Source: an uncultured Spirochaetia bacterium
Lineage (GTDB): Bacteria > Oederibacteriota > PGYV01
Direction: 5' to 3'
NCBI GenBank assembly: GCA_964417645.1
Contig: CAYQIS010000001.1
Coordinates: forward strand, 104,418-168,417
DNA: 64,000 nt
Numbering within the stretch: position 1 is the stretch's first letter; every line of letters starts with the position of its first letter. Both the position numbers and the translations under genes were made by a program. This document shows positions 8,074 through 44,418 of this stretch, piece after piece. The notes below the pieces were generated by a model, which saw only the letters and a program-made list of their open reading frames with translations, had not been told where the DNA came from and did no database searches.

Positions 8074-8663
8074 ATCTTATACCTTCCGGTTGAATTTTTT
8101 AATTTCTTAATGATTTTATGCAGACCGTTTACGGCCGCCAAAGCTTCTTTTTGCAGTTCTTTTCCTCCTGATTTTTTCTTAAGAGATTCCGCCATATTAT
8201 CAAGCTTTTCTATAATTTTTCTGTCTTCAGAAATCATATTTCTTATGCCGTTTATCATTTCATTTATTGCATCAGCCAATTCCTGCAAATCGTCATCTTT
8301 TCTGAATTTAATCACGGTTGAAAAATCACCTGTCTTAAGCTGCTCCGCAACTTTTTTTACCCTGTAAATCGGTCCCGCGATTCTGTGAGAAAGAAACACA
8401 CCCGCAACAGCGCTTAACACGCCAAGAACAACCGATGCCGCGGCAACCGTCCATGTGCTGGAAAGAAAAATATGCGACATTTTTTTTGCCGCTTCAGGCA
8501 CAAAGAAAAACTCATCAATTACCTGATTCCATATCATATAGAAGGTCGTAAAAGAAACGGTAAAAACCGAAATAAGAAGCAAAGACAAAAGAACAAAAAT
8601 ATATTTAAATTGAAATTTTCTGTCAACAATAAATATTTTTCTTCGATATTTTTGGATTGTCAT
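8070..8663 (-). CDS. small membrane protein with two TM helices and a HAMP domain, no output domain
   Basis: TM1 (about residues 20-42), a short loop, TM2, then a HAMP-like amphipathic segment (HRIAGPIYRVKKVAEQLKTGDFSTVIKFRKDDDLQELADAINEMINGI) and a coiled-coil tail. 4-nt overlap with the downstream pilin gene. Confidence 0.55.
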   Translation of the reverse strand: MTIQKYRRKIFIVDRKFQFKYIFVLLSLLLISVFTVSFTTFYMIWNQVIDEFFFVPEAAKKMSHIFLSSTWTVAAASVVLGVLSAVAGVFLSHRIAGPIYRVKKVAEQLKTGDFSTVIKFRKDDDLQELADAINEMINGIRNMISEDRKIIEKLDNMAESLKKKSGGKELQKEALAAVNGLHKIIKKLKNSTGRYKI

Positions 8664-8671
8664 ACCGCCCC

Positions 8672-9103
8672 CTAATATGTCGAATATATATTTCCGTTTA
8701 TATCAACAGCCACCGAATTTATATAAACAGAACCGTCGTTTGGTTTATAATACCAGCCTTTTCCCATTGTATTCGGCGAATCAGAACCCAAAGTAACCTG
8801 ATTTCCTGCCGGCATTGCTTCCTTTGGATACTTTGCCTTTACATAAGGAAGCTCCCCCGTGAAAACTTTTGAAAACTGAGGCTCCTGCCGGTAGTCAATG
8901 GATTTTGGCATCTCCACAAAAGTTCCATAATATATTCCCACGGCCGAACGAAGCGAGCCAAGATTTGCAATCGTTGCGCCAAGATTTGCTTTTTCCAATA
9001 ATTCGCCATATTTTGGGATTGCAATGGCCGCAAGAAGTCCCACAATAGCGACAACTATAAGAAGCTCCATTAAAGTAATCCCTCTTCTCCCCTTAATTTT
9101 CAC
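8672..9103 (-). CDS. type IV pilin-like / pseudopilin
   Basis: The track ORF starts at 9133. I prefer GTG at 9103, preceded by GGAGG plus a 7-nt spacer, giving MKIKGRRG|ITLMELLIVVAIVGLLAAIAIP (Glu at +5). The C-terminus ...INGNIYSTY is paralogous to 7651..8073. Confidence 0.7.
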   Translation of the reverse strand: MKIKGRRGITLMELLIVVAIVGLLAAIAIPKYGELLEKANLGATIANLGSLRSAVGIYYGTFVEMPKSIDYRQEPQFSKVFTGELPYVKAKYPKEAMPAGNQVTLGSDSPNTMGKGWYYKPNDGSVYINSVAVDINGNIYSTY

Positions 9104-9150
9104 GAAATAACCTCCGCAAATTTTTTGCATCATCCTTCCACTTCCGTGAA

Positions 9151-16949: not shown

Positions 16950-17681
16950 TCAGCTTAAAATGTTATCATCCTTTTTTTCCGCCGCCATATTTTCTTCTTC
17001 CTCTTCTTCTTTTTTCTTTTTCTGGAAGAAAACATACATTGCAGCAACACCGGCCACCAGAAGAAGCAGTATTATAAGTACGCCGCCGTTAATTCCGCCT
17101 TTTTTCTTGGCTTTTGCAGCCGGAGCGGCAGGCTCCGGAACTGAAGGCATTTCCTCTGAAACCTGGGTTTCACCTGCAGAAGATGATTCCTGGCGCTGTT
17201 CAATTTTTTCCGATGCAGCTTTGGATTTTTTTTCAACAATTATATCTCTGCTTTCCATCCCGGCAACAGAACCGCTTTCTATTGTTTCAGCTGATGCAGC
17301 CTCTTTTGGCGGATAATTAAGTTCTTCAGCGCGCTTTATTGCTTCTTCAATTTTTGCGGCATCAACATCTCTTGGTATTATAAGCCTTGTTCCTTCGGAA
17401 AGCTTTTCATAAGAATCAAGTATATCCCTGTTGGCATCGTATATCAAAGGCCACTGATACTTATTTCCGTATATCTCTGATTTTGCGGCAATGCCATATA
17501 TGGTGTCTCCGCTTTCAACAACATAGGTATTTGGGAGGTTTTCCTTGTTTGCCTGCTGGGCTTCACCTGCGGCCTGCCCGGCCGCATCACCTGCGCTGTT
17601 TATCTGCTGGCTGCCGCCGCATCCCGTAATAATAAATGCAGCGAAAACAGCCAGTACAGTTAAAACAAGAATTTTCTTCAT
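16950..17681 (-). CDS. LysM-domain lipoprotein with C-terminal TM segment and poly-Lys/Glu tail
   Basis: Lipobox (…IITGC|GG). LysM motif (YVVESGDTIYGIAAKS…RLIIP). Then a Pro/Ala/Glu-rich linker, a hydrophobic helix (GVLIILLLLVAGVAAMYVFF) and a KKKKEEEEEE tail. Confidence 0.65.
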   Translation of the reverse strand: MKKILVLTVLAVFAAFIITGCGGSQQINSAGDAAGQAAGEAQQANKENLPNTYVVESGDTIYGIAAKSEIYGNKYQWPLIYDANRDILDSYEKLSEGTRLIIPRDVDAAKIEEAIKRAEELNYPPKEAASAETIESGSVAGMESRDIIVEKKSKAASEKIEQRQESSSAGETQVSEEMPSVPEPAAPAAKAKKKGGINGGVLIILLLLVAGVAAMYVFFQKKKKEEEEEENMAAEKKDDNILS

Positions 17682-17779: not shown

Positions 17780-18781
17780 CTAGAACCTTACAAAAAGTCC
17801 AATTTTCTGATTTAATCCAAGTTCCCCGAAAGGCAATATAGTGTAATCAAATTCGTATTCTGTTGCATCAAACTTTATGCCAAGCCCAAGGCCGGCGGTA
17901 AATCCGGAAAAAGATCTTGCTTCAGGATTAAAATTGCTTCCAAACCTTATCCCAAAAGTATAATTTTCTATCTTTTGAAAGAAATCAATTCCGGCCCTTA
18001 AATTAATTCCATTTCCCAAATTGTAATCGGTGTCGGCCATAATAATCAATCTGTTATTAATGCTTACAATATTCATAAATTCGGCAGAAGCCCCAAATAC
18101 CGCGGTTAAAGGTGTAATACCCGCCGTAAAACTTGTGCCAAGATTTCTTGCCGAAAATCCCAAAAGAACTTTATGCAAAAGAAATTCCCCGCGATTTGAC
18201 ATAAAATCAGAATCTTCAATCAAAATCGTATATATGGCTCCGGCATCAAGTGAAACCGACATATTTTCATATACCCCGGCAAGCGATTCACCTGTAAATT
18301 TAAAAGCAAATCCCACATTTAAATCCTTTGTAAAATCATTATAAATCCATTTTTCAAAATCGATGCCGTAGCCCGCAGAAGCAAGATAATTAAATCCTTT
18401 TAATTCTGTTCCTCTGCCCATATAATTTCCCTGATTATCTTCAAGTGTGCTTGTTATACTTCCTGTATCAAGGTACTTTATGCTTACGGCAAAATTTCCA
18501 GCATCCCCCATTGACGAAGCGAAATAAAGCGAATCAAAAAAAGTATCCTGAAAATATAAATCATGCACAAATAAAAATTCTGATTTTTTTACAAATGATA
18601 TTCCTGCCGGATTACCGTCCAAAGAATCCGCTCCCAAAACATAAGCGGCCGAAACTCCGCCAACCGCCTGAGACCTTATACCTGCCGGAACTTTTAATAT
18701 GTCAACAGCTGCAGTTCCGGCCGCCGCTAAAGCCCAACAAGGCAGCGCAAAAACGATTAATAAAATCAAAAATTTTTTCAT
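17780..18781 (-). CDS. PorV/PorQ-family-like outer-membrane beta-barrel protein (T9SS cargo-shuttle homolog candidate)
   Basis: Signal peptide, then AGTAAVDILKVPAGIRSQAVGGVSAAYVLGADSLDGNPAGIS. This fits the conserved N-terminal motif of PorV/PorQ (UPF0164) barrels: L.I..aR..a.G..Gva...Da.s...NPAg. C-terminal ...GLFVRF ends in Phe. Its ATG overlaps the stop of the giant CTD-bearing gene (ATGA). Confidence 0.5.
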   Translation of the reverse strand: MKKFLILLIVFALPCWALAAAGTAAVDILKVPAGIRSQAVGGVSAAYVLGADSLDGNPAGISFVKKSEFLFVHDLYFQDTFFDSLYFASSMGDAGNFAVSIKYLDTGSITSTLEDNQGNYMGRGTELKGFNYLASAGYGIDFEKWIYNDFTKDLNVGFAFKFTGESLAGVYENMSVSLDAGAIYTILIEDSDFMSNRGEFLLHKVLLGFSARNLGTSFTAGITPLTAVFGASAEFMNIVSINNRLIIMADTDYNLGNGINLRAGIDFFQKIENYTFGIRFGSNFNPEARSFSGFTAGLGLGIKFDATEYEFDYTILPFGELGLNQKIGLFVRF

Positions 18782-21700
18782 TTTATCAGGTACACCTTGC
18801 CTTTTTCTTCTTCTCCGCGCTCGGGTCTGATAATATAATAATACACTCCGGGGGCTGTTTTCTCCCCTGCTTTATTTCTTCCGTTCCATTCAACCCTGCC
18901 GGATACACCCTTTGCCTCAAACATTACAAAGCCCTCAATATTATATATCGTTACATCAGCAGGCGCAGGAAGCAGTATTTTTAAAGTGCCGCCGTGAGAC
19001 TTTTCCCTGTCATACGGGTTAGGATATACAAGAATCTGCTGAATGGGTGTCTGTGTTGGGGTTACGGTTGGTGATACAGTCCAAGTTTGTGTGATAGTCC
19101 AGGTTTGTGTAATTGTCCATGTCTGTGTTATCGTCCATGTTGGCGTTATAGTGGGAGTATTTGTCTGTGTTGATGTCTGTGTATTTGTACCGGTTGCCGT
19201 TGATGTTGGGGTGCCGGTTGCCGTGGGTGTTACCGTAGGCGTCCAAGTAACCGTAACAGTGGGCGTGGACGTACCCGTAACAGTTCGTGTAGCTGTCTGC
19301 GTGTTTGTTTCGGTTACGGTTGGCGTTGATGTTTTGGTTACAGTCTGAGTGACGGAATATGTGTAAGTAATTGTTATTGTAGGTGTTACGGTTGCCGTAT
19401 GCACGGGCGTTATTGTGTGTGTCTTGGTAATTGTATGCGTTTCTGTGATTGTGGGGGAATGCGTGTGCGTCTGGGTTATTGTAAAAGACATTGTTTGAGT
19501 GGCAGTGGGCGTTACAGTGCCTGTAACCGTTTCAGTTGCAGTCTGTGTTATTGTCTGTGTTGCAGTCTGTGTTATTGTCTGTGTTGCAGTTGAAGTGTTT
19601 GTTCTTGTGACAGTCTGGGTTATTGTTTCCGTGGCAGTCTTTGTTGCGGTGCGTGTTACGGTTTCTGTCACAGTCTGCGTGCTTGTCCTTGTCACTGTTT
19701 GTGTGTTTGTTTCGGTTGCGGTTTGTGTGCTTGTCCTTGTCACTGTCTCTGTTGCAGTCTGAGTTGCGGTTCTCGTTATGGTTCCCGTAACTGTTTCGGT
19801 TGCGGTCTGTGTTATTGTCCTGGTTGCCGTTGGTGTTGAAGTCTGTGTAATTGTACGCGTAACGGTTGCCGTTACTGTAGGTGTTGCCGTAAATGTGGGC
19901 GGGTCAATGACAAGTATCTGGTTGCTTGTTCCCGCCTTGCCCGAATCAAGCGTGTCTTTGGCGGTAATTGAAACCATGCCAAGGGTTCCAAATGTTATTC
20001 CCGTAAACTGTTTTACACCAAGATCTCCCGCTGTGAATGTATAATCCGCGGGAAGTGATGCAAGCGTATCATTTGATGTAAAGTGTATTGTGCCGGTATA
20101 ATTTGTGACAGTTTGATTATATGCATCTTTTGCCCTTACTATTATACTGTAAAGATTCTGATACGGTCCGTAAGAACGGTAAGCCGTTGACGGCGCGGTA
20201 ATTGAAAAACTTATTGAAGGCTGTGATGTTATCACTCCGGAATATCCAGTATCATCCGGGTTTGCCATTGTTGCCGTCACCACATGACCAAGCCCTGAAA
20301 CAATGGACATTAAAAGGTCTGTTGTGATTCTGCCGTTTGAATCTGTCACCCCGCTCTGCGGGTTAACAGAACCGTAATTTGTGCTGAAAGTAACGGGAAT
20401 ATTTGCAATCGCCTGAGGTATGCCGTCCTGATCCACAACATATGCCGTAATCCTTACATAAGAACCTGCAGGAGCTGATGTGGCTGACGGAGGAGACACC
20501 TTTATATAATAACCGGTGCTGATATTAAGAGTGTTTCCCGAAGCAGCAAGAACAGGCGATGCGCTTGTTTCCTGTATTCGCATTATATTCTGTCCAACAT
20601 AATGGGATTTAATATATACCACGGCCTGCCCGCTTGCATTAAGATTAAAGTTAAGGCTGTTTGACCAGCTGTTCATATCCGTCGAATAAAGCACATGCGC
20701 TGTTGCTGTTGCCGGGCTTACGGTATAAATGTTAAGCCCAAAATGGCCAGTTGTTGGCGGCACATTATATCCGGCAGCATCAACAGAACTTACGTTTAAT
20801 ATGCCTATCTTATCGGCTCCGATAGACATCGGGTTCGGAACCGCCTGTATCCTTGTTGCGGCGCTTGCCGATGATATTGTAATTGTTGTTCCAAGCAATC
20901 CGCTTGAATTTATGACACAGTAATTAAGGCTTCCGGTGGTTGAGGTGCTGGTTCTGTACCATGCCGTAATCTGCCCGTTCTCAAGGGTGTTTCCCGAAGT
21001 CGGCGTTACAAAACTTGGAGCTTTTCCTGATTGTACATAGGCCGCAAAAGTTACATCCTTGTTATTGACAGGGTTCCCGTAAAGGTCCGTTACCTTAGCT
21101 GTCAGTGTCACCCACTGCCCCGCCCCTACGGCATAAAGATTTGACCACGCGCTAAGATATGCGGGGGAATTTGCAATTGTAGTCGGATATGCCTTGCCGT
21201 CCGCAAGCACTGATGCATTATCATGAGCGGTTATTGTTACAAATTTTGCCATTACCGTATCTTTATAGTACAAATAAGAAGTCCCGCTTGCAAGAGTTGT
21301 ATTTATTGTTGTAAACCAGTTAATTCCATCCGTTGAAAAACGCATTGTTGGTGAAACTGAAGAGATATTTACACTTGCGTTCGAAGATGCGTCAACTGTG
21401 CCGTTCTTTGCCTGTACCCTGATTTGTACCGGCTCCCCTGCTTTCGCGGTGGGGGAAACAGGGGTAATTGCAAGAGATGTTGCCGGCATGTCCGCAACAT
21501 AAACCATTGCAGTGCCGGTAAGCAGAGTATAAGCGTATCCTTTTATCTGGGCATTAACCGCCTGACTGTCCTTTACAAGAATTGAATTTTGGATCGCACC
21601 GCTTAAAACAAGCGTTGGAGACCATGTTACACCGTTGTTTGAACTGAACAAACTTGTGGCCGAATCTGATGTAATCGTAATTCCGCGCGCATCGGACACA

Positions 21701-24700
21701 AAATTGCCGTTTATGTCTTCAAGACGCACAAGCAAAGTTCCCGGAACATTTGTCTGAACGCTTAAATCAGAAGGCGTAATCTTAACTCTGCTGGCAGCAA
21801 GAGGCGAAAAATTAATTGATATGCTCTTGCTCATATGGCTTAAATATGCGGTAATTTGAGAAGATCCCGAAGCCGTTGAACTTATCCTTGCATAAGCATA
21901 ACCTTTCCAGTCTGTTATTGCTTTGGAGTTTCCGCTTACAGTCAAAGGAATTACTGTATCCGAGCTTCTGTTTGAAACAAAATCAATAAGCGCACCATAA
22001 ACAGGGTTTCCGTCCGGCCTTATCACACGCGCGGCAACCGTAATGTTGCTGTAGCCGTCGGCTGGAACCGATGTTGAAGGATTAGCCGAAAGTATCATGT
22101 CTTTTAAAATGAAAATGTAGTCGTCCTGTTCAAGGGAGTTCCAGGAAGCGCCAAAAGTAACGCTGGAATAAGTCATCCCGTTAATCGGCATCACATTGTT
22201 ATCGCTGAATATATTAATTTTAACAATACCAGCGGAATCGGTAAATCTTAAATTGTCATAAATTGCATTAAATGTACCCCGCATATTTGAAGCGGCGCCG
22301 TTAAAGCCAAAGTTCCCGGTATCCTGAGACAGGAAGAATTCTCTTTCATACATGCCTCCAAGACGGCTCATATCAAAACGTCTCTTATACCATTTTCCTC
22401 TTGCATAAGCGCTTATATCCATTGAAGGGTGTATTCTTATTGCATTCTGGTCAATTATATACTGCTGTGTTGCCTGTCCAAAATCCCTGTAATTGTCAAC
22501 ATAAGGCGATGGTATTGTAGCTCCTCTTCTGTCATTTTCTATCGAACAATAAAAACTTGAACTGTAATTCGGTATGAAGACATCATATTCAAGATAATAG
22601 TTGTTCGGAATCTGATGCACGTACCTTGATACGGAAAGATATGTAAACATATAGGTGTTTGCCGTAGGAAGATATGAAGTAAGAAGCATTGGCTGGCTGT
22701 ACTGTCCGCCGGTTCCCGAAACAACAATGTTGTTGCTTGTTCCGTTCACTGCAGGGTTTACGGTGTCGGTTCCCACTATCGTATAAGTTCCGGAACTGTT
22801 AATTGTCGCGGAGAATATCCTGCTGCCGTAATCCGTGGATACAAAAGTATAATCTGGAGGCAGGCTTGCCGTTGCTCCCGTGGTAAAATGTATTGTACCC
22901 GTATAGTTTTCAACTATATTCTCATAAGCATCTTTTACCGTAACGACAAAATTAAAGCTTACTCCCATATTTGCGCTAAGCGGTGCGGTTATATCATAGT
23001 GATTGGGCGCTCCTGCAATAACATTTATGCCGTTACTGGTACCGTTAATCGAAGGCGTAACGATATCGCGCGCAGATATTGTCTGTATGCCTTTTGTGCG
23101 CAACTGAACGGGTAAAATTTTACTGCCGGCATCAGAAAGCGTAAAAACAGTATCCGACGGCAAAATCGCATTGGTATCAGTTGAAGTGAACCCCACTGTT
23201 CCGGTATATCCGGTTACAACATTATTATAAGCATCCTTCGCGGTAACCGTAATGAATATCGTCTGCCCTGCGGCTGCGGTTGCAGGCGCTTCAATTGTAA
23301 AACTTACCGCATTTCCTGTTGTAAGGTTAATATTTGCATTTCCCGGAGTCAGCACTCCGTCAGATGCGGTAATTGTCTTTAACCCGGTGTTGTTAATCTG
23401 AACCCTGAACCAGCTTACACCGCCCTCACTTCCGTCAAAAACATATGATGACGGGTCAAACCAATACGAGAGCGCGTTAGAAGTCATATTTACCGTGCCT
23501 GTATAAAGCGGATAAACAAAATCTCCGTAAGATATCGGGGCTTTTGCTCTTACAGTCACATAAAATGGCACGCCGGCTATCTGCTGGGGGGTTGCTATTA
23601 TTTCAAGATGATCCGCATACATTGTTGCGGTTGCAGTTGGGCTTGCGGTTGCGGTTGCTGTTCTTGTAACAGTTGGCGTCACTGTTTGGGTTACTGACGG
23701 CGTTGAAGTCGGTGTTGATGTCCTTGTTACAGTCGGGGTTACAGTTGATGTTACAGTGCCCGTTGCAGTGCGGGTAACCGTGGGCGTGTTTGTCGGCGTG
23801 TTTGTGGCTGTTACCGTTGGGGTTACGGTTCCTGTTGCCGTTCCTGTTGCCGTACGGGTGATTGTTGCAGTAACAGTTGCGGTTGCAGTATTGGTTATTG
23901 TTGCAGTAACAGTCGGGGTTGCAGTTCGCGTTGCGGTTAAGGTTATCGTGAAAGTTATAGTTGATGTTACTGTTTGTGTAACAGTACGGGTAACTGTCTG
24001 TGTTGCTGTCTGTGTATTAGTGGGCGTAACCGTGGATGTTACGGTCTGTGTAACTGTAGGTGTGATTGTCTGCGTGCTCGTAAGGGTTATTGTGCTGGTC
24101 TGTGTAACCGTTTGTGTTACTGTCTGTGTATTTGTAGCGGTTGACGTCCTTGTAACCGAAGGAGTTGCCGTCGGAGTTGATGTTTCAGTAACTGTTCTTG
24201 TTACAGTAGGGGTTGATGTTTCTGTTGCGGTCCTTGTTATCGTTGCAGTGACTGTTTCCGTATTTGTAAGTGTAATCGACGGGGTTATACTTGGAGTTGG
24301 TGTGTCCGTATGTGTTTGTGTAATCGTTGCGGTATTCGTAAAAGTGGGGGTTATCGAAAAAGTTGGTGTAATGGTATACGTCGGTGCGGGGTATTCCGTA
24401 TAATTAATTGTTATACTGTTTATAAACGGAGATACAAAATTGTCATAAGTCCGCAGCATTGCTTTCCAAAGTATATCCTGCCCTTTATCAGAAGGCCTTG
24501 AATCAAAATGAACGCCGATTCCCGGCGTCACCTGTATCCAAGTGGTTCCGTTATTGCTTGAAATATAATAAGCTATCTCCTGCCCGTTTAAAGTATCTGA
24601 CGCATTAAGTGTAATTGACATGTAGTTTGCAAACCAATGCGCAACAGACACGGACTGAAGCCATCCTGGCGAAGTGTACGCCGCTCCGTAAATATTCAAT

Positions 24701-26712
24701 TTTGCCCTTGCGCCGGCAATAACCCAGCTTTCACCGTTAAATGTCACGGTATTAATTTGTGATGCGCCAAAATTTTCAAGCTGAGAGGTCACGTCAGTTA
24801 TAATCGCTTCGCCGTCGGTTATACTGTATATTTTCCCCGAACCTCCCGCAACATACCATTTATCCAAATTATTGTCATAATCTATTCCGTATATGTTGTT
24901 TGCTCCCATACCCGAAAGAGTTATCTGATTCCATCCTGTCCAGTCAAAAAGAAAAAGTTTTCCGCTGTCACAGCCAACAAGTATTTTGGCAAAACCCGAA
25001 TCCTGCCCGTCCCATTCAACTACATTTATACCTGTTGTGCCTCCACCTGCATAAAAGTAATCATTTGACAAATCCTGAAATATTCCGCCGGACGGTGTAT
25101 AGCTTGCAACATTTCCGCCTGCGCCGCCTATTATCCATTTATTATTGGAATTTCCCCACCATGCAGCGGCCTTAACGGCAGCGCCGCTGTCCCAGCCTGA
25201 CGCAACAAGATCCGCGCTCCTGTCCGTATAATTATGCCCATTTGCGCTTGTTGCAATTTTATTGTTGTCTCCTCCCACAAGCCACTCGCTGCCGTTCCAT
25301 TTTATTACATTTACGGCATTTGTTCCAAAGCCAAGCTCCGTTGTCTTTGATGTAAAAGAAACGCCGTCATATGCGGCTATTTTCCCGCCCTGCCCGCCAA
25401 TCAGCCAGTATGTTCCATTCCAGGCAATCGCCAAAACTCTGGATGTGCCAAAACCAAGGCTTGTTTTAAGATCGGTAAAAGTGTTTGTTGCCTGATCGTA
25501 TTTGTTAAGGCAGCCGTCATCTCCTCCAAGCAGCCAGTAACTGCCGTTCCAGCCCGAACAGTTTATGGGCTGAAAACCAAAATCCTTTACATTATCGGTA
25601 AGTTCGTTGTTAACCGGCGAATCAACACCGCCGGTTCTGTTCATAAGTCTGGCATTTAATCCGCCTATAAAATTGTTTGTTCCGTCTGTTTCTATGGCGT
25701 AAATATTGTCATTTGAAAAGAAAGCAGGGTTGGTCTGCATATAGTATGTGTTAAGATCAGTGCTTGTATAAAGCCTTGTTGTTGATCCGTCCTGCCCGCC
25801 TATCATCCAATAGCTTCCGTTATGCCGTATAGAGTAAACCCAGGACAAATTTGAAAGCGAGCTGTAAGTGAAAGACGAGCCGTTATACTTCATTATCCTG
25901 GATGAACCTCCGCCTATTGCCCATGTACTCCCGTTCCATTCAAGCGCGTATATGTCAATTGCTCCGCCTGCGGCCGTCTGAAAATCAGAAGATAAATTTG
26001 TAAAAGTTGTGCCGTCATACCTTACAAGCCTTCCGCCCGTGCCCGCTATTAAAAAGTAACTGCCGTTCCACTTTATTGCCCTTATTGAATTTGTTCCAAA
26101 AGCCGAAGTAAAATTGGAATTGTTTATAAGAGACCAGGTTGTGCCGTCAAAACTGTTTAATTTGCCTCCCGCTCCGCCAATCAGCCAAAATTGTGTGGGG
26201 GTGTCTTTATACGCAATTGCATAAATATCAACACCGCCCCAGCCAACCAGATTTGATGTATAATCAATCCAAGTGCTGTCTCCGTTCCACCTTTTAAGCA
26301 CCCCGCCATATCCGCCCACAAGCCAATATGAACCGTTGCAGTAAGCGGCAAAAATGTCATTATCAAAACCGGCTTCCGAAGTCTTATTAATATAAACAGA
26401 ACCGTTATACCTGTTTATTTTTCCGTTTCTTCCGGCAATAAGCCAGTTTCCCGCGTTTTGATGAATTGTGTATATCGCTCCGCCCCAGTTCTGAACTCCT
26501 GTTGTTTCGGCGAACCTATTGCCACGAAGCAGTGCGCCGCGATGATTTGTGGTGTCCCAATTTGCGGTTGTATTTGAAGCGTCTTTATAAGTATTGTCAT
26601 TAAAATTTTCAGTATATGTTCCGGTTGCCGCAAAGGAATTTACAAATAATAAAAGTAAAAAAAAGAAAATCCACGCCCCACTGTAAATCTTTAAACGTAA
26701 ATGCCGCATCAT
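18778..26712 (-). CDS. giant secreted multidomain surface protein (2,644 aa): 14-blade propeller repeats, Big-like Ig domains, two TxT tracts, T9SS-type C-terminal sorting domain
   Basis: Signal peptide (MMRHLRLKIYSGAWIFFFLLLLFVNSFAATG). About 14 repeats of 45 aa with core W-N-G-S-x-W-L-I-G-G-x-G-G-K-I. Big_1/Big_2-like motifs (AKDAYNNVVTGYTGTVGFTS; ADGYSNITVAARVIRPDGNPVYGALIDF). Tracts with Thr at every second position at aa 777-1030 and 2272-2556. The C-terminal 88 aa (YPNPYDREKSHGGTLKILLPAPADVTIYNIEGFVMFEAKG…WNGRNKAGEKTAPGVYYYII…KVYLIK) match Por_Secre_tail / FlgD-Ig-like consensus. Own RBS (GGAG) and a TATAAT-like box upstream. Confidence 0.85.
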   Translation of the reverse strand: MMRHLRLKIYSGAWIFFFLLLLFVNSFAATGTYTENFNDNTYKDASNTTANWDTTNHRGALLRGNRFAETTGVQNWGGAIYTIHQNAGNWLIAGRNGKINRYNGSVYINKTSEAGFDNDIFAAYCNGSYWLVGGYGGVLKRWNGDSTWIDYTSNLVGWGGVDIYAIAYKDTPTQFWLIGGAGGKLNSFDGTTWSLINNSNFTSAFGTNSIRAIKWNGSYFLIAGTGGRLVRYDGTTFTNLSSDFQTAAGGAIDIYALEWNGSTWAIGGGSSRIMKYNGSSFTYSSLSNLSWVYSIRHNGSYWMIGGQDGSTTRLYTSTDLNTYYMQTNPAFFSNDNIYAIETDGTNNFIGGLNARLMNRTGGVDSPVNNELTDNVKDFGFQPINCSGWNGSYWLLGGDDGCLNKYDQATNTFTDLKTSLGFGTSRVLAIAWNGTYWLIGGQGGKIAAYDGVSFTSKTTELGFGTNAVNVIKWNGSEWLVGGDNNKIATSANGHNYTDRSADLVASGWDSGAAVKAAAWWGNSNNKWIIGGAGGNVASYTPSGGIFQDLSNDYFYAGGGTTGINVVEWDGQDSGFAKILVGCDSGKLFLFDWTGWNQITLSGMGANNIYGIDYDNNLDKWYVAGGSGKIYSITDGEAIITDVTSQLENFGASQINTVTFNGESWVIAGARAKLNIYGAAYTSPGWLQSVSVAHWFANYMSITLNASDTLNGQEIAYYISSNNGTTWIQVTPGIGVHFDSRPSDKGQDILWKAMLRTYDNFVSPFINSITINYTEYPAPTYTITPTFSITPTFTNTATITQTHTDTPTPSITPSITLTNTETVTATITRTATETSTPTVTRTVTETSTPTATPSVTRTSTATNTQTVTQTVTQTSTITLTSTQTITPTVTQTVTSTVTPTNTQTATQTVTRTVTQTVTSTITFTITLTATRTATPTVTATITNTATATVTATITRTATGTATGTVTPTVTATNTPTNTPTVTRTATGTVTSTVTPTVTRTSTPTSTPSVTQTVTPTVTRTATATASPTATATMYADHLEIIATPQQIAGVPFYVTVRAKAPISYGDFVYPLYTGTVNMTSNALSYWFDPSSYVFDGSEGGVSWFRVQINNTGLKTITASDGVLTPGNANINLTTGNAVSFTIEAPATAAAGQTIFITVTAKDAYNNVVTGYTGTVGFTSTDTNAILPSDTVFTLSDAGSKILPVQLRTKGIQTISARDIVTPSINGTSNGINVIAGAPNHYDITAPLSANMGVSFNFVVTVKDAYENIVENYTGTIHFTTGATASLPPDYTFVSTDYGSRIFSATINSSGTYTIVGTDTVNPAVNGTSNNIVVSGTGGQYSQPMLLTSYLPTANTYMFTYLSVSRYVHQIPNNYYLEYDVFIPNYSSSFYCSIENDRRGATIPSPYVDNYRDFGQATQQYIIDQNAIRIHPSMDISAYARGKWYKRRFDMSRLGGMYEREFFLSQDTGNFGFNGAASNMRGTFNAIYDNLRFTDSAGIVKINIFSDNNVMPINGMTYSSVTFGASWNSLEQDDYIFILKDMILSANPSTSVPADGYSNITVAARVIRPDGNPVYGALIDFVSNRSSDTVIPLTVSGNSKAITDWKGYAYARISSTASGSSQITAYLSHMSKSISINFSPLAASRVKITPSDLSVQTNVPGTLLVRLEDINGNFVSDARGITITSDSATSLFSSNNGVTWSPTLVLSGAIQNSILVKDSQAVNAQIKGYAYTLLTGTAMVYVADMPATSLAITPVSPTAKAGEPVQIRVQAKNGTVDASSNASVNISSVSPTMRFSTDGINWFTTINTTLASGTSYLYYKDTVMAKFVTITAHDNASVLADGKAYPTTIANSPAYLSAWSNLYAVGAGQWVTLTAKVTDLYGNPVNNKDVTFAAYVQSGKAPSFVTPTSGNTLENGQITAWYRTSTSTTGSLNYCVINSSGLLGTTITISSASAATRIQAVPNPMSIGADKIGILNVSSVDAAGYNVPPTTGHFGLNIYTVSPATATAHVLYSTDMNSWSNSLNFNLNASGQAVVYIKSHYVGQNIMRIQETSASPVLAASGNTLNISTGYYIKVSPPSATSAPAGSYVRITAYVVDQDGIPQAIANIPVTFSTNYGSVNPQSGVTDSNGRITTDLLMSIVSGLGHVVTATMANPDDTGYSGVITSQPSISFSITAPSTAYRSYGPYQNLYSIIVRAKDAYNQTVTNYTGTIHFTSNDTLASLPADYTFTAGDLGVKQFTGITFGTLGMVSITAKDTLDSGKAGTSNQILVIDPPTFTATPTVTATVTRTITQTSTPTATRTITQTATETVTGTITRTATQTATETVTRTSTQTATETNTQTVTRTSTQTVTETVTRTATKTATETITQTVTRTNTSTATQTITQTATQTITQTATETVTGTVTPTATQTMSFTITQTHTHSPTITETHTITKTHTITPVHTATVTPTITITYTYSVTQTVTKTSTPTVTETNTQTATRTVTGTSTPTVTVTWTPTVTPTATGTPTSTATGTNTQTSTQTNTPTITPTWTITQTWTITQTWTITQTWTVSPTVTPTQTPIQQILVYPNPYDREKSHGGTLKILLPAPADVTIYNIEGFVMFEAKGVSGRVEWNGRNKAGEKTAPGVYYYIIRPERGEEEKGKVYLIK
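18781..19044 (-). other. T9SS-type C-terminal sorting domain (CTD) of the giant protein
   Basis: YPNP…hydrophobic strand…IYNIEG…WNG.N..G…GVYYY…K…L.K matches the type-A T9SS CTD (TIGR04183-like) pattern. Confidence 0.6.
19045..19899 (-). repeat. coding low-complexity tract: about 285 codons of alternating Thr (T-x-T-x), ending in WTITQT x4
   Basis: Translation of the minus strand gives PTFTATPTVTATVTRTITQTSTPTATRT…WTITQTWTITQTWTITQTWTVSPTVTPTQTP. On the plus strand it shows as a periodic GT-rich (gtN) run. The V-x-V shadow ORFs 19043..19348, 19499..19762 and 19778..20044 are artefacts of this. Confidence 0.85.
23623..24385 (-). repeat. coding low-complexity tract: about 254 codons of alternating Thr (T-x-T-x)
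   Basis: PTYTITPTFSITPTFTNTATITQTHTDTPTPSITPSITLTNTETVTATITRTATETSTPTVT…ATATASPTATAT. The plus-strand shadow ORF 23756..24403 (V-x-V) is an artefact of this. Confidence 0.85.
24640..26500 (-). repeat. about 14 tandem protein-level repeats of 45 aa (beta-propeller blades) in the giant protein N-terminus
   Basis: Recurrent units such as IYAIAWNGSYWLIGGQGGKIAAYDGVSFTS, AIKWNGSYFLIAGTGGRLVRYDGTTFTN and CSGWNGSYWLLGGDDGCLNKYD. 14 units is consistent with two 7-bladed propellers. Confidence 0.6.
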
Positions 26713-26772: not shown

Positions 26773-27303
26773 TCAATTTTTATAAGCCATACCTTCAAAA
26801 AAAGCTTTTTTATTTATCTCAAATGCATCGCATTTACCGCCAAGCATTTCATTCATAACCTTTAATGCGGCATCAACATTTAAAATTTTCTTTACATTAA
26901 AATAAGCTCCCGCGGCAACGATATTCATTGCCTTAACAAAATTTATTTTTTTTGCTATATCAGCCGCAGGAATCATCATTATATTACCTTTTATGAACGG
27001 CGTTTTGTTAATTATTGAAGAATTTATTATACTTATGGTTTTGTCCGTTGCCTTTTGGCCAAAAGTTTCCAGTGCCCTGTTGTCAAAACAAATCAGGGTG
27101 TCCGGTCTTTCAACAACAGGCGAAAATATTTCACCGTCCGATATAACTATCTGACAAAAAGAAAACCCGCCCCGTTTTTCCGCGCCATAAGACGGCAGCC
27201 ACGTTGTGTGAAGCCCCTGTTCTATGGCTGTTCTTGAAAGGAATATTCCGAGGGTCAAAACTCCCTGCCCGCCCGAACCTGCTATTATTATTTTATCTTC
27301 CAT
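26773..27303 (-). CDS. 2-oxoacid:ferredoxin oxidoreductase gamma subunit
   Basis: MEDKIIIAGSGGQGVLTLGIFLS… is the POR/KOR gamma N-terminus. 176 aa. Confidence 0.8.
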   Translation of the reverse strand: MEDKIIIAGSGGQGVLTLGIFLSRTAIEQGLHTTWLPSYGAEKRGGFSFCQIVISDGEIFSPVVERPDTLICFDNRALETFGQKATDKTISIINSSIINKTPFIKGNIMMIPAADIAKKINFVKAMNIVAAGAYFNVKKILNVDAALKVMNEMLGGKCDAFEINKKAFFEGMAYKN

Positions 27304-28049
27304 CAGTTTTCATCCTTTATTACGCCGGGCACAAAATACTCTGCCATGGCTGTATCAACAAATTTTACGGCATCAACAGGTTCCATTTTCCAGTTTGCCG
27401 GGCAGGCGCTTAAAACTTCAACAAGGGAAAACCCCTTGCCGTTTATCTGGTTTTCAAAAGCCTTTTTAATAACTTTTTTTGCCCTTATAACAGAACCCGC
27501 GTCGCTTATTTTTACGCGCGCAAGAAACTTGGCGCCCGGCAGGCTTGACAGCAATTCGGGTATTTTTATCGGAAAACCCTGGTCCGCCGATTTCCTTCCT
27601 GCAGGAGAAGTTGTTGTAACCTGGTCAATAAGTGTGGTTGGCGCCATCTGTCCGCCGGTCATTCCGTAATTTACATTGTTGATAAATATTACGGTGATGT
27701 TTTCTCCCCTGTTCGCCGTGTGCACTGTTTCTGCCATACCTATCGAAGCAAGGTCTCCGTCTCCCTGATACACAAGAACAAACTTTTCCGGATGAAGCCT
27801 TTTGATTGCGGTTGCAACGGCAGGTGCCCTGCCATGCGCGGCTTCGGTTGTGTCAAAATTAAAAAAATCATAGGCAAATACGGCGCATCCAACGGGAGCA
27901 ACCGCAATTGCTTTTTCACGCAGTTTAAACTCGTCCACAAGTTCGGCAATTATCCTGTGCACTGTTCCGTGCCCGCATCCCGGACAGTATGAAAAAGTGG
28001 TGTCTGTAAGAGATTCCGGTTTTTTATAAACTGTTTTCAAGTTGTCCAT
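27303..28049 (-). CDS. 2-oxoacid:ferredoxin oxidoreductase beta subunit (TPP-binding)
   Basis: …YCPGCGHGTVHRII… and …VLVYQGDGDLASIGMAE… TPP-binding motifs. 248 aa. ATG overlaps the gamma gene stop. Confidence 0.85.
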   Translation of the reverse strand: MDNLKTVYKKPESLTDTTFSYCPGCGHGTVHRIIAELVDEFKLREKAIAVAPVGCAVFAYDFFNFDTTEAAHGRAPAVATAIKRLHPEKFVLVYQGDGDLASIGMAETVHTANRGENITVIFINNVNYGMTGGQMAPTTLIDQVTTTSPAGRKSADQGFPIKIPELLSSLPGAKFLARVKISDAGSVIRAKKVIKKAFENQINGKGFSLVEVLSACPANWKMEPVDAVKFVDTAMAEYFVPGVIKDEN

Positions 28050-28053
28050 TATT

Positions 28054-29097
28054 TCACCGCTTTTCTTTCATAAATTCAGCAATTTCTTCGGCGGTTGGAA
28101 CTCCTCCGCCCGCCCTTCCAAGAAATTCAATTTTAGAATCATCCATAACGGCAAGCCTTACGTCCTCAACAAACTGTCCCAAAGACATCTCAACAACAAA
28201 AACTTTTTTTGCTTTTTTGGACGCTTCTTTCAACGCATCATAAGGAAACGGCCATAGTGTTTTTGGCCTGAACACAGATACATTTAAACCCGAAAGCGCA
28301 GCAGCCCCTTTGGCAATCCTTGCCGTTGTACCGTAAGCGCAAAGAATATAATCATAATCTGTATTATTTTTAAATTCCCATTTTTGTTCCTTTGATTTTA
28401 TCAGCTCAAATTTCTTTCCAAGTTTAACATTGTGCGCTTCAAGTTCGCCCGGTTTCATCATAAGGGAATTTATCCTGCGGCCCGGCCTGTCAACAGCTCC
28501 GGTTAAAGCCCACGAAGATTTATCATACTTTTTTTCCGGTCTTCTTCTTTTAAGGTCTATGTCTTCCATCATCTGTCCAAGCAGCCCGTCGGTTAAAACC
28601 ATAACAGGAACCCTGTACTCATCCGCAAGGTCAAAGGCGTCAAAGGTTTGGTCATACATTTCCTGTATTGTTGATGGGGCAAGCACAATATTTCTGTAAT
28701 CTCCATGCCCGGGTTTTACAGCCTGAAAGTAATCCGCCTGAGACGGAGAAATATTCCCAAGACCCGGGCCGCCGCGCTGTACATTCACAAGAACGCAAGG
28801 AAGTTCACATGCGGCAAGATAAGATATTCCTTCCTGCATAAGCGAAATTCCCGGAGACGAAGATGTTGTCATGCAGCGTTCACCTGTTACGGCCGCGCCA
28901 AATACCATATTAATGGCCATAAGTTCGCTCTCTGCCTGAATAAATACACCGCCCGTTGCCGGCATCATGTAAGACATCAGTTCAGGTATCTCATTTTGCG
29001 GGGTTATCGGGTATCCTGCGTAAAACCTGCAACCCGCATCAAGCGCGGCAAGCACTATTGCCTTATTTCCCTTTAAAAGCTGTGTTTTTATTTGCAT
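28054..29097 (-). CDS. 2-oxoacid:ferredoxin oxidoreductase alpha subunit
   Basis: 347 aa with similarity to KorA/OorA (…YAGYPITPQNEI…GGPGLGNISPSQADYFQAV…). Confidence 0.85.
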   Translation of the reverse strand: MQIKTQLLKGNKAIVLAALDAGCRFYAGYPITPQNEIPELMSYMMPATGGVFIQAESELMAINMVFGAAVTGERCMTTSSSPGISLMQEGISYLAACELPCVLVNVQRGGPGLGNISPSQADYFQAVKPGHGDYRNIVLAPSTIQEMYDQTFDAFDLADEYRVPVMVLTDGLLGQMMEDIDLKRRRPEKKYDKSSWALTGAVDRPGRRINSLMMKPGELEAHNVKLGKKFELIKSKEQKWEFKNNTDYDYILCAYGTTARIAKGAAALSGLNVSVFRPKTLWPFPYDALKEASKKAKKVFVVEMSLGQFVEDVRLAVMDDSKIEFLGRAGGGVPTAEEIAEFMKEKR

Positions 29098-34994: not shown

Positions 34995-36029
34995 TTATTG
35001 CCCGTATCCGTCCCTGTTTTTTATTGCAGTTTTTCCTGTAATTTTCACTCGGATAAACTCATATGAATATATGAAAAAAGTAGCAAGACAAACCGGAATA
35101 TGCCAAATCCAAAAAATTCCAGGTTTGCGAAAAAAACCAACAAAAGTCTGAAATATTAAAGGCAGAACTGTTATACAAGAAACAACGAACATCAAAATGC
35201 CTTTTAAAGGAAATTTTTTCCAAGGATATTTTCTATGTCCATACGAACTAAAATACATAAAATCTTTAACACGTCGATCCTGTTTTTTAAGAAACAATCT
35301 GAATTCAGGAGAATAAATATGTATTATTCCTATATTAACTTTTGCAAACTTCTTTAAACCCTTCTCCATCATTTGATATACTGCATCTATATCAAAAAGA
35401 TAAGGAGAATATGATGTTGCTTTCAAAATATCGGCTCTCAAAAAAGTTCCATTTGCCCCTATTGTCGGCATTCTATTTTTTTCTAATTCAATCAATATGT
35501 ATCCTTCCATTTGCTTAGTCTTAAGTTTCATCCCTGTCCATTTCCCCGTAATATAACTATATCTGTCATAATTTCCTATAAAAAGGCACAAAGGATCATT
35601 GATTCCGGCACATGCAAAATATTTTGTAAGACTTTTATTTTTTTCGTTATATGTAAAATATATTGGCTCACTTCCTAAAATTTCCGGTTCTTCAAGAAAA
35701 GGCAATACCATTTTACTTATAAAAGAAGTTTCCGGCATTATGTTGTCGCTATCTATGAATGCAAGTAATTCTCCAACAGAAATCTTTACAGCCTCGGCCT
35801 TTCCTGCTTCACCGGTTTGAAGCGGATTTGAAATTATTCTTATTTTCAATTTATCCATAAAACTCTTTATAATCTGAATTGTTCTGTCTTTTGAACCTGC
35901 GTCCGCAATGACCACTTCAAAAAGCTCTTTAGGATAATCTTGCAGGCATATTGCCTCTAAGCATTGACCTATAACACTCTCTGAATTATAAACAGGCGTA
36001 ATAATAGAAACAAAAGGTAATTTTTTCAT
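34995..36029 (-). CDS. family-2 glycosyltransferase (GT-A fold)
   Basis: N-terminus …PFVSIITPVYNSESVIGQCLEAICLQDYPKELFEVVIADAGSKDRT… plus a DxD-like motif (…AFIDSDN…). 344 aa with a C-terminal hydrophobic segment. Confidence 0.6.
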   Translation of the reverse strand: MKKLPFVSIITPVYNSESVIGQCLEAICLQDYPKELFEVVIADAGSKDRTIQIIKSFMDKLKIRIISNPLQTGEAGKAEAVKISVGELLAFIDSDNIMPETSFISKMVLPFLEEPEILGSEPIYFTYNEKNKSLTKYFACAGINDPLCLFIGNYDRYSYITGKWTGMKLKTKQMEGYILIELEKNRMPTIGANGTFLRADILKATSYSPYLFDIDAVYQMMEKGLKKFAKVNIGIIHIYSPEFRLFLKKQDRRVKDFMYFSSYGHRKYPWKKFPLKGILMFVVSCITVLPLIFQTFVGFFRKPGIFWIWHIPVCLATFFIYSYEFIRVKITGKTAIKNRDGYGQ

Positions 36030-37474
36030 TTCCTAATCTTCATAAAATCAAGAATATGCCCCGTAACCGCTTTACCCGCCTTAAACAAGAAACTTAAATC
36101 TTCAAAAGACCTTATTGAAAAAAGCTGGCGCAGCATAAAACGCGGCGTCATGAAAGCTCTGTATATACTGTTACACATGGCTACAACTTCTTCATCTGTC
36201 ATGTCCGGTGTTTTAAATACGGGTTCTGTCATATCAAATTTTTCCCATTCACCCGGTTTTATCTTCAGCCAGCCATTTTGAACCGCCTGATCGTAAAGCG
36301 GTGTTCCCGGATATGCCGTAACAACAGTTGCCTGAAGCATATCGGCAAGCCCTTTATCAAGAAGCTTTCTGGCAAGATCAAGGGTCCGCTGAGCGTCTGC
36401 CTTTGTTTCCCAAGGATATCCCACCATTACGGTTAAATGCACTCCAAGTCCGGCGTCTTTTGCCGTTCTGCAACCCTTCTCTATATCTTCGACCTTTGTC
36501 CCCTTGCACAGCCTGTCCAACGTTTCCTGATTTGCAGACTCAAGACCGAATTTCATAAGTCTAAAACCCGCTTTTTTCATAAGAGGCGCTATTGAAGGAT
36601 TTATATAATCAAACCTGAAATTACACATCAAAGAAATCTTATAGTCTCTTTGTATCATTCCTTCACAAAATTTTTTAAGCCATTCTCCCCTGGGAAATGT
36701 TCCTGTGTCATCAAATATTTCCCTTATTCCGTATCTCCTTACAAGCATATCTATCTCGGAAAGCAGACTTTCCGGGCTTCTTGTGCGAAACTTTGGAAAC
36801 AAACCTGTCCATGCACAAAAAGTACATTTGCCCCAAGGGCAGTCGCGTCCTACCATTGTATATGTATAAGGCGCATATTTAAAAAATTTTTCCCCGTATA
36901 ATTTCCACTTTGTGAGATCGCGGTCTATAAACGGAAGCGAATTTAAATCATATTTAAGCTCAAATCTGCCGGTATCCTTTATGGTTCCATTATCCCTGTA
37001 CCACGTACCCGGTTCAAGAGCCGCTTTACCGTTTAAGTTTTCCGCCACGCCAAGAAGCATAAAATCAAAATCTCCGCCTGTTATAACATAATCAAATGTT
37101 GAGTTCTGCATTGTTTCCAAAGGAAAAGCCGTTACATGATCTCCCATAATAACTGTTTTTACATTTGGCAGTATTTCCTTTATTTTGGCTTCTATCCGCC
37201 ATATCTGCCTTACAACAGGAGTCTTTGTTTCAATGGCTATAAGATCCGGCTTTTCCTCAATCAAAAGCTTCTCATAACTTTCCCAATTCATGAACTCCGC
37301 AATGGAGTCATTATAAATTACATCATAACCTTTGTTTTTAAGCAAAGTGGCGGCAGAAGCCGGCACCATCGGATAAATAAAAGAAGGATTATGAAACCAC
37401 TGAAACTGCCTGTTCTGCCCAAGAGTCGGAGTTCCTTTGCCTTTAAGCGGCGGGTATGATATCATTACCTTCAT
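36026..37474 (-). CDS. B12-binding-domain radical SAM protein
   Basis: N-terminal Rossmann-like cobalamin-binding region (…KPDLIAIETKTPVV…VIMGDHVTA…), then a radical-SAM core with a cysteine triad reading GRDCPWGKCTFCAW (C-x4-C-x2-C spacing as translated). 482 aa. 4-nt overlaps with both neighbouring genes. Confidence 0.7.
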   Translation of the reverse strand: MKVMISYPPLKGKGTPTLGQNRQFQWFHNPSFIYPMVPASAATLLKNKGYDVIYNDSIAEFMNWESYEKLLIEEKPDLIAIETKTPVVRQIWRIEAKIKEILPNVKTVIMGDHVTAFPLETMQNSTFDYVITGGDFDFMLLGVAENLNGKAALEPGTWYRDNGTIKDTGRFELKYDLNSLPFIDRDLTKWKLYGEKFFKYAPYTYTMVGRDCPWGKCTFCAWTGLFPKFRTRSPESLLSEIDMLVRRYGIREIFDDTGTFPRGEWLKKFCEGMIQRDYKISLMCNFRFDYINPSIAPLMKKAGFRLMKFGLESANQETLDRLCKGTKVEDIEKGCRTAKDAGLGVHLTVMVGYPWETKADAQRTLDLARKLLDKGLADMLQATVVTAYPGTPLYDQAVQNGWLKIKPGEWEKFDMTEPVFKTPDMTDEEVVAMCNSIYRAFMTPRFMLRQLFSIRSFEDLSFLFKAGKAVTGHILDFMKIRK

Positions 37475-40429: not shown

Positions 40430-40431
40430 TA

Positions 40432-41463: not shown

Positions 41464-41475
41464 TTTTTCCTCCGC

Positions 41476-42444: not shown

Positions 42445-42468
42445 TTTCTCCTCCTTAATAATTATTCA

Positions 42469-44397: not shown

Positions 44398-44418
44398 TAT
44401 ATCCTCCTTAAAAAGGTT

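Follow-up and report, generated by a model that had tools for sequence, protein, structure and literature searches.

A giant protein with a T9SS-type C-terminal domain is encoded in overlap with a PorV/PorQ-like barrel in a bacterium of the Goldbacteria/FCPU426 lineage

Introduction

In the current model for type IX secretion systems (T9SS), type A C-terminal sorting domains (CTDs) share one general carrier, PorV, and private carriers serve only type B CTDs. Here we report on a gene pair in a 64,000-nucleotide stretch of DNA from an uncultured bacterium (contig CAYQIS010000001.1, positions 104,418 to 168,417), which is called the window below. The upstream gene encodes a giant protein of 2,644 amino acids (aa) that ends in a T9SS-type CTD, and its stop codon overlaps with the start codon of a gene for a PorV/PorQ-like outer-membrane barrel. 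By analogy with the known carriers, the barrel probably serves the giant as its cognate carrier and anchor, and the two genes would form a two-gene surface-display module.

Two described arrangements come closest to this gene pair. In the attachment complex of Porphyromonas gingivalis, PorU and PorZ keep their type A-like CTDs and are held non-covalently, at a ratio of about 1:1, by the 14-strand PorV/PorQ-family barrels PorV and PorQ, respectively (PMC5562754, PMC12365241). PorV (structures 6H3I and 8GL6) also serves many other substrates and is present in large excess over the secretion channels (PMC5562754). It binds substrate CTDs through its extracellular loops inside SprA, and a near-invariant lysine close to the CTD's C-terminus contacts PorV (PMC10994853). 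The second arrangement is represented by SprB-SprF and other type B pairs of Flavobacterium johnsoniae. In these cases, the gene of a giant adhesin adjoins the gene of its own carrier, which then serves as the anchor; such linkage is frequent, with cognate specificity (PMC12618676, PMC9143113, PMC10994853). Accordingly described are type B substrates that stay bound to their cognate PorP/SprF-like carriers, with sprB adjoining sprF (PMC9143113), and the frequent linkage of type B CTD substrate genes to genes of PorP/SprF-like shuttles in F. johnsoniae (PMC12618676). Reviews confine the T9SS to the Bacteroidota or to the Fibrobacteres-Chlorobi-Bacteroidetes (FCB) group (PMC11205867, PMC10202324), and we found no literature report that links Goldbacteria or FCPU426 with a T9SS. 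Tails matching TIGR04183 have been noted in Poribacteria without Por structural genes, and the pathway was left open (PMC3909097).

Results

The cargo and barrel genes share four nucleotides

The original prediction described a T9SS-type cargo gene whose stop overlaps the start of a PorV-like barrel gene, and the overlap was indeed seen in the sequence (Table 1). The junction reads ...ctgataaaATGAaaaaa, or in longer form ...ATAAAATGAAAAAA, and the TGA stop codon of the giant and the ATG start codon of the barrel gene share the four bases ATGA. This overlap suggests that the cargo and barrel genes are translationally coupled. Both proteins begin with a predicted signal peptide, which is MMRHLRLKIYSGAWIFFFLLLLFVNSFA/A and of the Sec type for the giant, and MKKFLILLIVFALPCWALA/A for the barrel. 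The last residue of the barrel is phenylalanine, the usual ending of outer-membrane barrels.

Table 1. Positions of the cargo and barrel genes, of the parts of the giant and of the downstream neighbour in the window
Feature	Position	Strand	Characteristics and basis
Giant cargo gene, 2644 aa	18778..26712	minus	Open reading frame list and translation; Sec-type signal peptide aa 1-28
PorV/PorQ-like outer-membrane barrel gene, 333 aa	17780..18781	minus	Signal peptide, conserved N-terminal DILKVPAG..Q..GG...NPAG segment, 14 predicted strands, C-terminal Phe
ATGA stop/start overlap of cargo gene and barrel gene	18778..18781	minus	Read from sequence
N-terminal head, aa 28-780	24373..26631	minus	Beta-propeller-like; W-L-I-G-G repeats
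Thr-rich linker 1, aa ~781-1030	23623..24372	minus	Composition
Central rod, aa 1031-2273	19894..23622	minus	Big_1/invasin-like Ig domains, Pfam Big_1 E 3e-17 to 2e-23
Thr-rich linker 2, aa ~2274-2554	19051..19893	minus	Composition and DNA tandem repeats
C-terminal domain (CTD), aa 2555-2644	18781..19050	minus	T9SS-type beta-sandwich, type A-like
Downstream neighbour, 243-aa predicted lipoprotein	16950..17681	minus	LysM (peptidoglycan-binding) domain, Pfam LysM E 7e-5, and C-terminal hydrophobic helix

The giant ends in a type A-like CTD

The end of the giant carries the motifs YPNP...IYNIEG...WNGRNKAGE...GVYYY...K, from which it had been predicted to be a type A T9SS CTD, and the domain runs up to the stop codon. 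The Pfam family CHU_C was matched with 31 bits by the whole protein and with 36.4 bits by the last 100 aa, the gathering score being 27; the alignment spans 29-84 of the 86 model positions. The match to the type A model TIGR04183 was borderline, with 23.3 bits for a 90-aa piece and 22.8 bits for a 100-aa piece at a cut-off of 23. The top NCBIfam match of the tail was the PorZ model (positions 663-749, its C-terminal 87 positions; E 4e-13), and the PorU CTD ranked after TIGR04183. The CTDs of the orthologues were analyzed with the same models. All nine matched TIGR04183 (best E 3.3e-9) and the PorZ CTD (best E 6.9e-15), and seven matched the PorU CTD; the type B model of NCBIfam, TIGR04131, matched a single one with an E-value of 0.0031. 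Related CTD fragments bear the precomputed annotation PF18962.

A profile of 29 CTD sequences was used to rank the sequences of the PDB. PorZ came first (5m11, E 3.9e-12), followed by an ice-binding protein (5uyt, E 1e-7), the NucA CTD as seen inside the SprA-PorV translocon (8glk_D, E 1.7e-4), FlgD (3osv, E 1.8e-4), PorU (6za2, E 8e-4), and the RgpB CTD (5hfs, E 0.0098). An AlphaFold (AF2) model of the last 94 aa had a predicted local distance difference test (pLDDT) score of 94.3 and fitted the seven-strand beta-sandwich of solved CTDs. With this model as the Foldseek query, the best PDB match was again the PorZ CTD (5m11, E 2.7e-5, TM 0.74); the top 11 included the CTDs of RemA (8gl6_D), RgpB (7pq4/5ag8), and NucA (8glk_D), and the matches also comprised Fn3-like domains of the streptococcal C5a peptidase and FlgD. 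Judged from sequence and predicted structure, the tail is a T9SS-type CTD, type A-like and nearest to the CTDs that are retained (PorZ, PorU) rather than cleaved. The agreement of the motifs, CHU_C, TIGR04183 at the margin, the PorZ model, AF2, and Foldseek thus bears out the prediction of a T9SS-type CTD.

The CTD consensus of the clade ends in GKxYIxK and the window sequence in KGKVYLIK; both have lysines there that might correspond to RemZ Lys1110. A search with the CTD profile returned mostly short contig-end fragments of 74-156 aa, which gave no basis for a census.

The downstream gene encodes a distant relative of PorV and PorQ

After its signal peptide, the barrel begins with ILKVPAGIRSQAVGGVSAAYVLGADSLDGNPAG, as had been noted in assigning it to PorV/PorQ, and this N-terminal motif region is common to PorV and the window barrel. 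The PorV/PorQ family model NF033709 matched the protein with an E-value of 1.9e-15 over positions 1-323 of 326, at a score of 57.3 bits that does not reach the cut-off of 90. The PorQ equivalog matched the N-terminal half (E 1.9e-13; 50 bits, cut-off of 220 not reached), and the match to the PorV equivalog was weak (17 bits, cut-off of 250 not reached). All 13 barrels of the clade matched NF033709 (best E 3.6e-25) and PorQ (3.2e-19). Models of PorP/SprF did not match the window barrel at E<=1 (Pfam and NCBIfam), and at E<=0.01 they left all 13 clade barrels unmatched; FadL models were absent among the matches of the window barrel, for which the PorV/PorQ models were the sole significant ones.

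Two Pfam families had also been suggested for this 333-aa protein. PF19572 gave no match at E<=1, and UPF0164 (PF03687) remained below the threshold (15.6 bits versus 21.4, residues 28-104 only). UPF0164 is a FadL-like family of Treponema pallidum; the papers we found on it are genome, transcript, and proteome studies of Treponema. Many clade members carry a precomputed PF03687 annotation, and the record of one calls it 'UPF0164 family protein [Spirochaetia bacterium]', unlike the window barrel with its sub-threshold score.

AlphaFold, run with 13 sequences, yielded a 14-strand barrel (pLDDT 73, predicted template-modelling score 0.73) with a disordered segment of about 43 residues at the N-terminus. 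This is the FadL-like strand number that had been anticipated. The closest structure of the model was PorV, which was also the sole meaningful match when a sequence profile of the barrel was compared with the PDB (E 0.0012); the barrel and PorV are about 18% identical. On this evidence from sequence and modelling, the barrel is a distant relative of PorV and PorQ with the 14-strand architecture of the FadL superfamily; it lies below the curated thresholds and is not a certified family member. By analogy, it may also work like PorV and PorQ.

The identities of the two proteins bear on the possibility that the genes are unrelated neighbours, i.e. that the barrel is a FadL/TodX-type transporter of hydrophobic compounds, the CTD is a generic FlgD-Ig-like fold without a sorting role, and the adjacency is a by-product of synteny. 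FlgD does match the CTD profile at the E-value given above, Pfam FlgD_ig matches the CTD at 0.004, and the barrel stays under the curated family cut-offs. However, the T9SS models outscored FlgD by about eight orders of magnitude on the CTD, which also speaks against the generic FlgD-Ig-like fold that the original prediction had named as the alternative identity of the C-terminus, and no FadL model competed with the PorV/PorQ models on the barrel. The adjacency itself is considered in the next two sections.

The gene pair is conserved and duplicated as a unit

A word-indexed search of 5.8 billion proteins found about 24 close relatives of the barrel, followed by a gap. When a profile was compared exhaustively with 1.84 billion cluster representatives, E<=1e-30 was reached by 36 of them, E<=1e-10 by 2,865, and E<=1e-3 by 8,325. 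By these sequence scores, the barrel clade makes up a small part of a very large superfamily of PorV-like proteins. Outside the clade, many of the nearest relatives (E 1e-50 to 1e-38; representatives P0080, P0082, and P0086) have 540-713 aa; in proteins of this type, the PorV-like barrel is joined to a domain of the FlgD-Ig-like kind, to an OmpA peptidoglycan-binding domain, and to TPR repeats. These fusions recall the PorP-PorE wall tether of the T9SS.

A scan of one genome per species gave eight loci of the clade. Their record titles read candidate division FCPU426, Candidatus Goldbacteria, 'Spirochaetia', or 'bacterium'; according to a published argument, the first two names denote one phylum (PMC7031533). 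The host is a diderm bacterium of the Goldbacteria/FCPU426 lineage and not a member of the Bacteroidota; the suspicion of a lineage outside the Bacteroidota, raised from the neighbouring genes, was therefore borne out by the labels of the syntenic relatives.

In all eight loci, the barrel gene was preceded, with a gap of -59 to +3 nt, by an open reading frame (ORF) with the same CTD at its end. Five of the upstream ORFs were complete giants of 2618-2727 aa, save one paralogue of 1733 aa, and two others ended at a contig edge. At the same position in the relatives were found giant orthologues of 2618-2727 aa and paralogues of 2899 aa and 1733 aa. The gene order was also kept, namely a divergent MFS transporter gene, the giant, the barrel, the LysM lipoprotein, DUF374, RelA-SpoT, and L28. 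Across the clade, the identities were 61-65% for RelA, 41-56% for the barrel, and 36-56% for the domains of the giant. Together with the synteny, these levels are consistent with vertical inheritance.

In three cases more than one copy was present. L012 has two tandem copies with CTDs 96.7% and barrels 97.3% identical, L013 has two copies (45.9% and 37.1%, respectively), and L008 has a second, very divergent copy (27.8% and 27.5%). The two tandem modules of L012 (4771-20889) are near-identical, and one of the cargo proteins lacks the central rod (1733 versus 2899 aa). L008 (526-16949) and L013 (1-11038) also carry two cargo-barrel modules per contig, and modules lie side by side or a few kb apart. 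The cargo and barrel genes thus duplicate and diverge together as a unit. The proposed dedicated cargo/barrel module held up in this comparison, with adjacency in eight of eight related genomes and duplication of the whole pair, and these observations confirm that the gene pair is real, conserved, and well beyond chance.

Cargo-barrel pairs occur beyond the clade

Distant PorV-like barrels, with E-values of 1e-12 to 1e-22 against the family profile, were also found directly after CTD-ending proteins. L013, in which a barrel is named 'PorV/PorQ family protein [Elusimicrobiales bacterium]', contains two pairs, one of an fn3-rich protein and a 391-aa barrel, the other of a Kelch-propeller protein (1,792 aa) and a 345-aa barrel; stop and start codons overlap in both. 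A 1,193-aa protein is followed by a 341-aa barrel in L014, and a 735-aa protein by a 378-aa barrel in L018. The cargo proteins of all three contigs end in a CTD that is recognised by the CTD profile. On a further contig, a peptidase C1/lectin protein directly precedes a barrel. In total, a CTD-ending ORF lies directly upstream of 16 of the 18 inspected barrels. The two exceptions are in L015, described below, and in L017. In L017, the barrel gene adjoins a cytidylate kinase gene and no CTD-ending ORF lies upstream; we take this barrel to be a PorQ of the Bacteroidota type.

Adjacency was therefore found in paralogous copies within one genome as well as in distant homologues with unrelated cargo (fn3, Kelch, and linked to TonB-dependent receptors), so that conserved synteny alone is insufficient as an explanation. 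Taken with the family matches of both proteins, this makes it highly improbable that the two genes are unrelated neighbours.

Two additional observations concern these contigs. On the unrelated contigs L014 (3292-10742) and L018 (4413-11137), a gene for a TonB-dependent receptor lies directly upstream of the cargo-barrel pair, which suggests a nutrient-capture role for their cargo. In L015 (7028-10417), a frame of 1,130 codons with a CTD end is split by the public gene calls into a 139-aa product and three short genes on the minus strand. Thr-rich regions seem to mislead gene callers, and the CTD proteins of the lineage may be under-counted.

A probable carrier and anchor for the giant

Our reading starts from the domain identities of both proteins, the barrel fold, the gene overlap, and the conserved linkage with co-duplication, all established above, and continues by analogy. 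The giant would be exported via Sec as an adhesin-like protein with a beta-propeller-like head, two Thr-rich stalks, an Ig-domain rod, and the CTD. The extracellular loops of the barrel would bind the CTD of the giant encoded just upstream, roughly 1:1, and the barrel would hold the giant on the cell surface, as PorQ does with PorZ, PorV with PorU, and SprF-like carriers with type B adhesins such as SprB. Translational coupling would supply matched amounts of the two proteins. To cross the outer membrane, the giant would depend on a translocon of the SprA/Sov kind, encoded at another place in the genome, or on a different route. We infer the CTD-barrel binding, the surface anchoring, the stoichiometry, and the adhesin function from the systems described in the Introduction.

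Among these systems, PorZ-PorQ is the most similar. The PorZ CTD is the best match of the window CTD in both sequence and structure, the window barrel matches PorQ, and, by analogy, a retained type A-like CTD would likewise be held non-covalently at about 1:1 by a barrel of this family. Unlike in the PorZ-PorQ and PorU-PorV pairs, the window genes overlap, the host does not belong to the Bacteroidota, and nothing suggests a role linked to a sortase or to anionic lipopolysaccharide (A-LPS). The SprB-SprF type of pair shares with the window the direct neighbourhood of the genes of a giant and its carrier, and the CHU_C family matched by the window CTD above threshold is a type B family. In contrast to SprB-SprF, the window barrel matches PorV/PorQ and not PorP/SprF, the CTDs fall to type A in nine of nine cases, and no gliding machinery is known in the lineage. 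While PorV serves many substrates, each barrel of the window type is coupled to one cargo gene.

These comparisons modify two parts of the original prediction. Its view that linkage of a cargo gene to a shuttle gene is exceptional was overstated and is only partly right, because among type B substrates it is normal for the two genes to be linked (PMC12618676, PMC9143113). What is unusual in the window is that a type A-like CTD is paired, outside the FCB group, with a private barrel of the PorV/PorQ kind and not of the PorP/SprF kind. In addition, the label 'shuttle' may not fit, since translational coupling and a PorZ-like CTD agree better with a barrel that anchors its partner stably at 1:1, in the manner of PorZ-PorQ, than with a shuttle.

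Several points weigh against a cognate carrier and anchor. The T9SS core families (SprA/Sov, PorK/L/M/N = GldKLMN, PorU, PorT, and PorW) were unmatched among the about 40 other proteins of the 64-kb window in NCBIfam, and six flanking proteins searched with Pfam only had no T9SS domain; the scanned proteins are encoded by housekeeping, ABC transport, pilin-like, and glycosylation genes. On this basis, the T9SS-like export route of the original prediction stays a hypothesis. One-to-one pairing is not universal, as the barrel gene in L015 is preceded by a glycosyltransferase gene and two CTD-ending ORFs on the same contig are not followed immediately by a barrel gene. The cargo-barrel unit itself is not delimited by signals of a promoter or terminator, and a perfect promoter-like site comes after the barrel gene.

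Some of these observations would fit a canonical T9SS in a new phylum, in which SprA/Sov, PorKLMN-like, and PorU-like proteins are encoded elsewhere in the genome. The giant would then be an ordinary type A substrate, and the barrel a PorV paralogue that ferries it from the translocon to the sortase, where the CTD is cut off. This is supported by the CTD, which marginally passes the type A model that all orthologues match, by PorV as the closest structure of the barrel, and by the unpaired CTD-ending proteins of L015, which are expected for a general pathway. However, none of the core families was matched among the about 40 other window proteins scanned with NCBIfam, the reviews cited above limit the T9SS to the Bacteroidota or the FCB group, and the CTD is nearer to the retained CTDs of PorZ and PorU than to cleaved ones (E 3.9e-12 for PorZ versus 0.0098 for RgpB). 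Moreover, tight one-to-one gene coupling and co-duplication suit a stoichiometric partner better than a recycling shuttle. We therefore consider a canonical T9SS rather unlikely.

Another alternative is a minimal system that is independent of the T9SS. Without an SprA-type translocon, the CTD and the barrel would be self-contained, aid in surfacing, and anchor the giant, for example together with the beta-barrel assembly machinery (BAM) or a type II-like pathway, and they would represent an ancestral or parallel form of the carrier-cargo interaction of the T9SS. The module recurs in lineages without a described T9SS (labels Elusimicrobiales, 'Spirochaetia', FCPU426, and Goldbacteria), the Poribacteria have TIGR04183 tails without Por structural genes (PMC3909097), and pilin and pseudopilin genes occur in the window. 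Yet a plugged 14-strand barrel of the FadL type is far too narrow for a protein of 2,600 aa, no translocation component was identified, and the absence of core genes covers 64 kb and not the genome. We regard such a system as improbable.

On a wider scale, pairs of CTD cargo and PorV-like barrel could be a widespread two-gene surface-anchoring system in diderm phyla without SprA/PorKLMN (Goldbacteria/FCPU426, Elusimicrobia, and others), with a carrier-CTD interaction that is older and wider than the T9SS and was recruited later by the T9SS of the Bacteroidota. This idea is tentative and appears doubtful to us. If it were true, two-gene anchoring without a T9SS machine would account for the orphan T9SS tails of phyla that have no Por structural genes, as in Poribacteria (PMC3909097).

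If the barrel is the cognate anchor of the giant, as we favour, the pairing offers a simple rule for predicting surface-displayed giants in uncultured phyla. It would also make available natural CTD-carrier pairs, both cognate and non-cognate, in which the basis of carrier specificity could be studied, as well as a direct way to ask whether CTD-carrier recognition works without the T9SS motor and translocon, a question that dates from the finding of CTDs in genomes without Por genes (PMC3909097).

Architecture of the giant protein

The giant has the form of head, stalk, rod, stalk, and anchor (Table 1), as in a surface adhesin or coat protein, and we infer a corresponding function. In the head, 12 W-L-I-G-G repeats are recognisable with a spacing of 37-49 aa and two double-length gaps, which leads to about 14 blades. 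The heads of the orthologues are 36-48% identical, and a profile of eight orthologues gave only weak matches to beta-propellers (Aip1, E 5.6e-5; Ycf48, E 1.8e-4). No PorZ or Reg_prop match was found for the head in Pfam or NCBIfam, and no family could be assigned. PorZ has two seven-bladed propellers before its CTD (PMC5562754), and the giant has about 14 propeller-like repeats. Homology of the head to the PorZ propellers was rejected at the sequence level: unlike the CTD, to which the likeness to PorZ is confined, the propeller region has no detectable sequence relationship. Also unlike PorZ, the giant carries stalks and an Ig rod that together add about 1,800 residues.

Both linkers contain 28-50% Thr in a T-x-T-x pattern, with short imperfect DNA tandem repeats in linker 1 and DNA tandem repeats in linker 2. 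Both are variable among orthologues; linker 1 differs in length and sequence and does not align; it is presumed to be an extended, possibly glycosylated stalk. The rod is 43-56% identical among orthologues, includes a stretch of about 200 aa (aa ~1340-1545) without a family match, and had no match among PDB sequences.

A glycosylation cluster is present on the minus strand of the window at 34995-46827. Besides three glycosyltransferases of family GT2 and a radical SAM protein of the B12-binding type, it encodes an Agl23-like flippase-associated protein (42469-44397) and a membrane protein with a chlor_Arch_YYY domain (44419-46827). This cluster might glycosylate the Thr-rich stalks of the giant.

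Neighbouring genes and further observations

The gene for the LysM lipoprotein follows the barrel gene in at least seven related genomes. Between the barrel stop codon and this gene, at 17762-17735 on the minus strand, lies a sigma-70 consensus (TTGACA, 16 nt, TG-TATAAT) with 12 of 12 positions matched, and the 60-nt gap that separates the oxidoreductase gene from the start of the giant contains no comparable site. The lipoprotein could belong to the cargo-barrel module. A role as a PorE-like wall tether is a low-confidence idea, in view of its own promoter-like site and no functional link.

Upstream of the giant, at 26773-29097, are genes for subunits of a 2-oxoacid:ferredoxin oxidoreductase. 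These subunits, the prepilin-type proteins at 7651-9133, and SpoVS had been listed as neighbours in the original prediction and were found again in the window. A membrane protein that resembles O-antigen ligase/IctB and has TPRs at its C-terminus is encoded at 5340-7634. After it come two genes for prepilin-type proteins (7651-8073 and 8672-9133), which flank a gene for a HAMP-domain protein. Further propeller-type genes are two adjoining NHL-repeat (ScyF-like) proteins at 40432-42444 and two adjoining TolB-like beta-propeller proteins of 246 and 303 aa at 60716-62487; the short TolB-like ORFs may be pieces of one gene or separate paralogues.

The base composition changes at the locus. Between 18000 and 26000, the GC content is 0.43-0.45 with a neutral or positive GC skew, while nearly all other segments have 0.35-0.41 and a negative skew. 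Horizontal transfer was rejected as the cause, because the shift in GC and skew tracks the giant gene, which is rich in Thr codons (ACN) and lies on the minus strand, and because the locus is syntenic across the clade.

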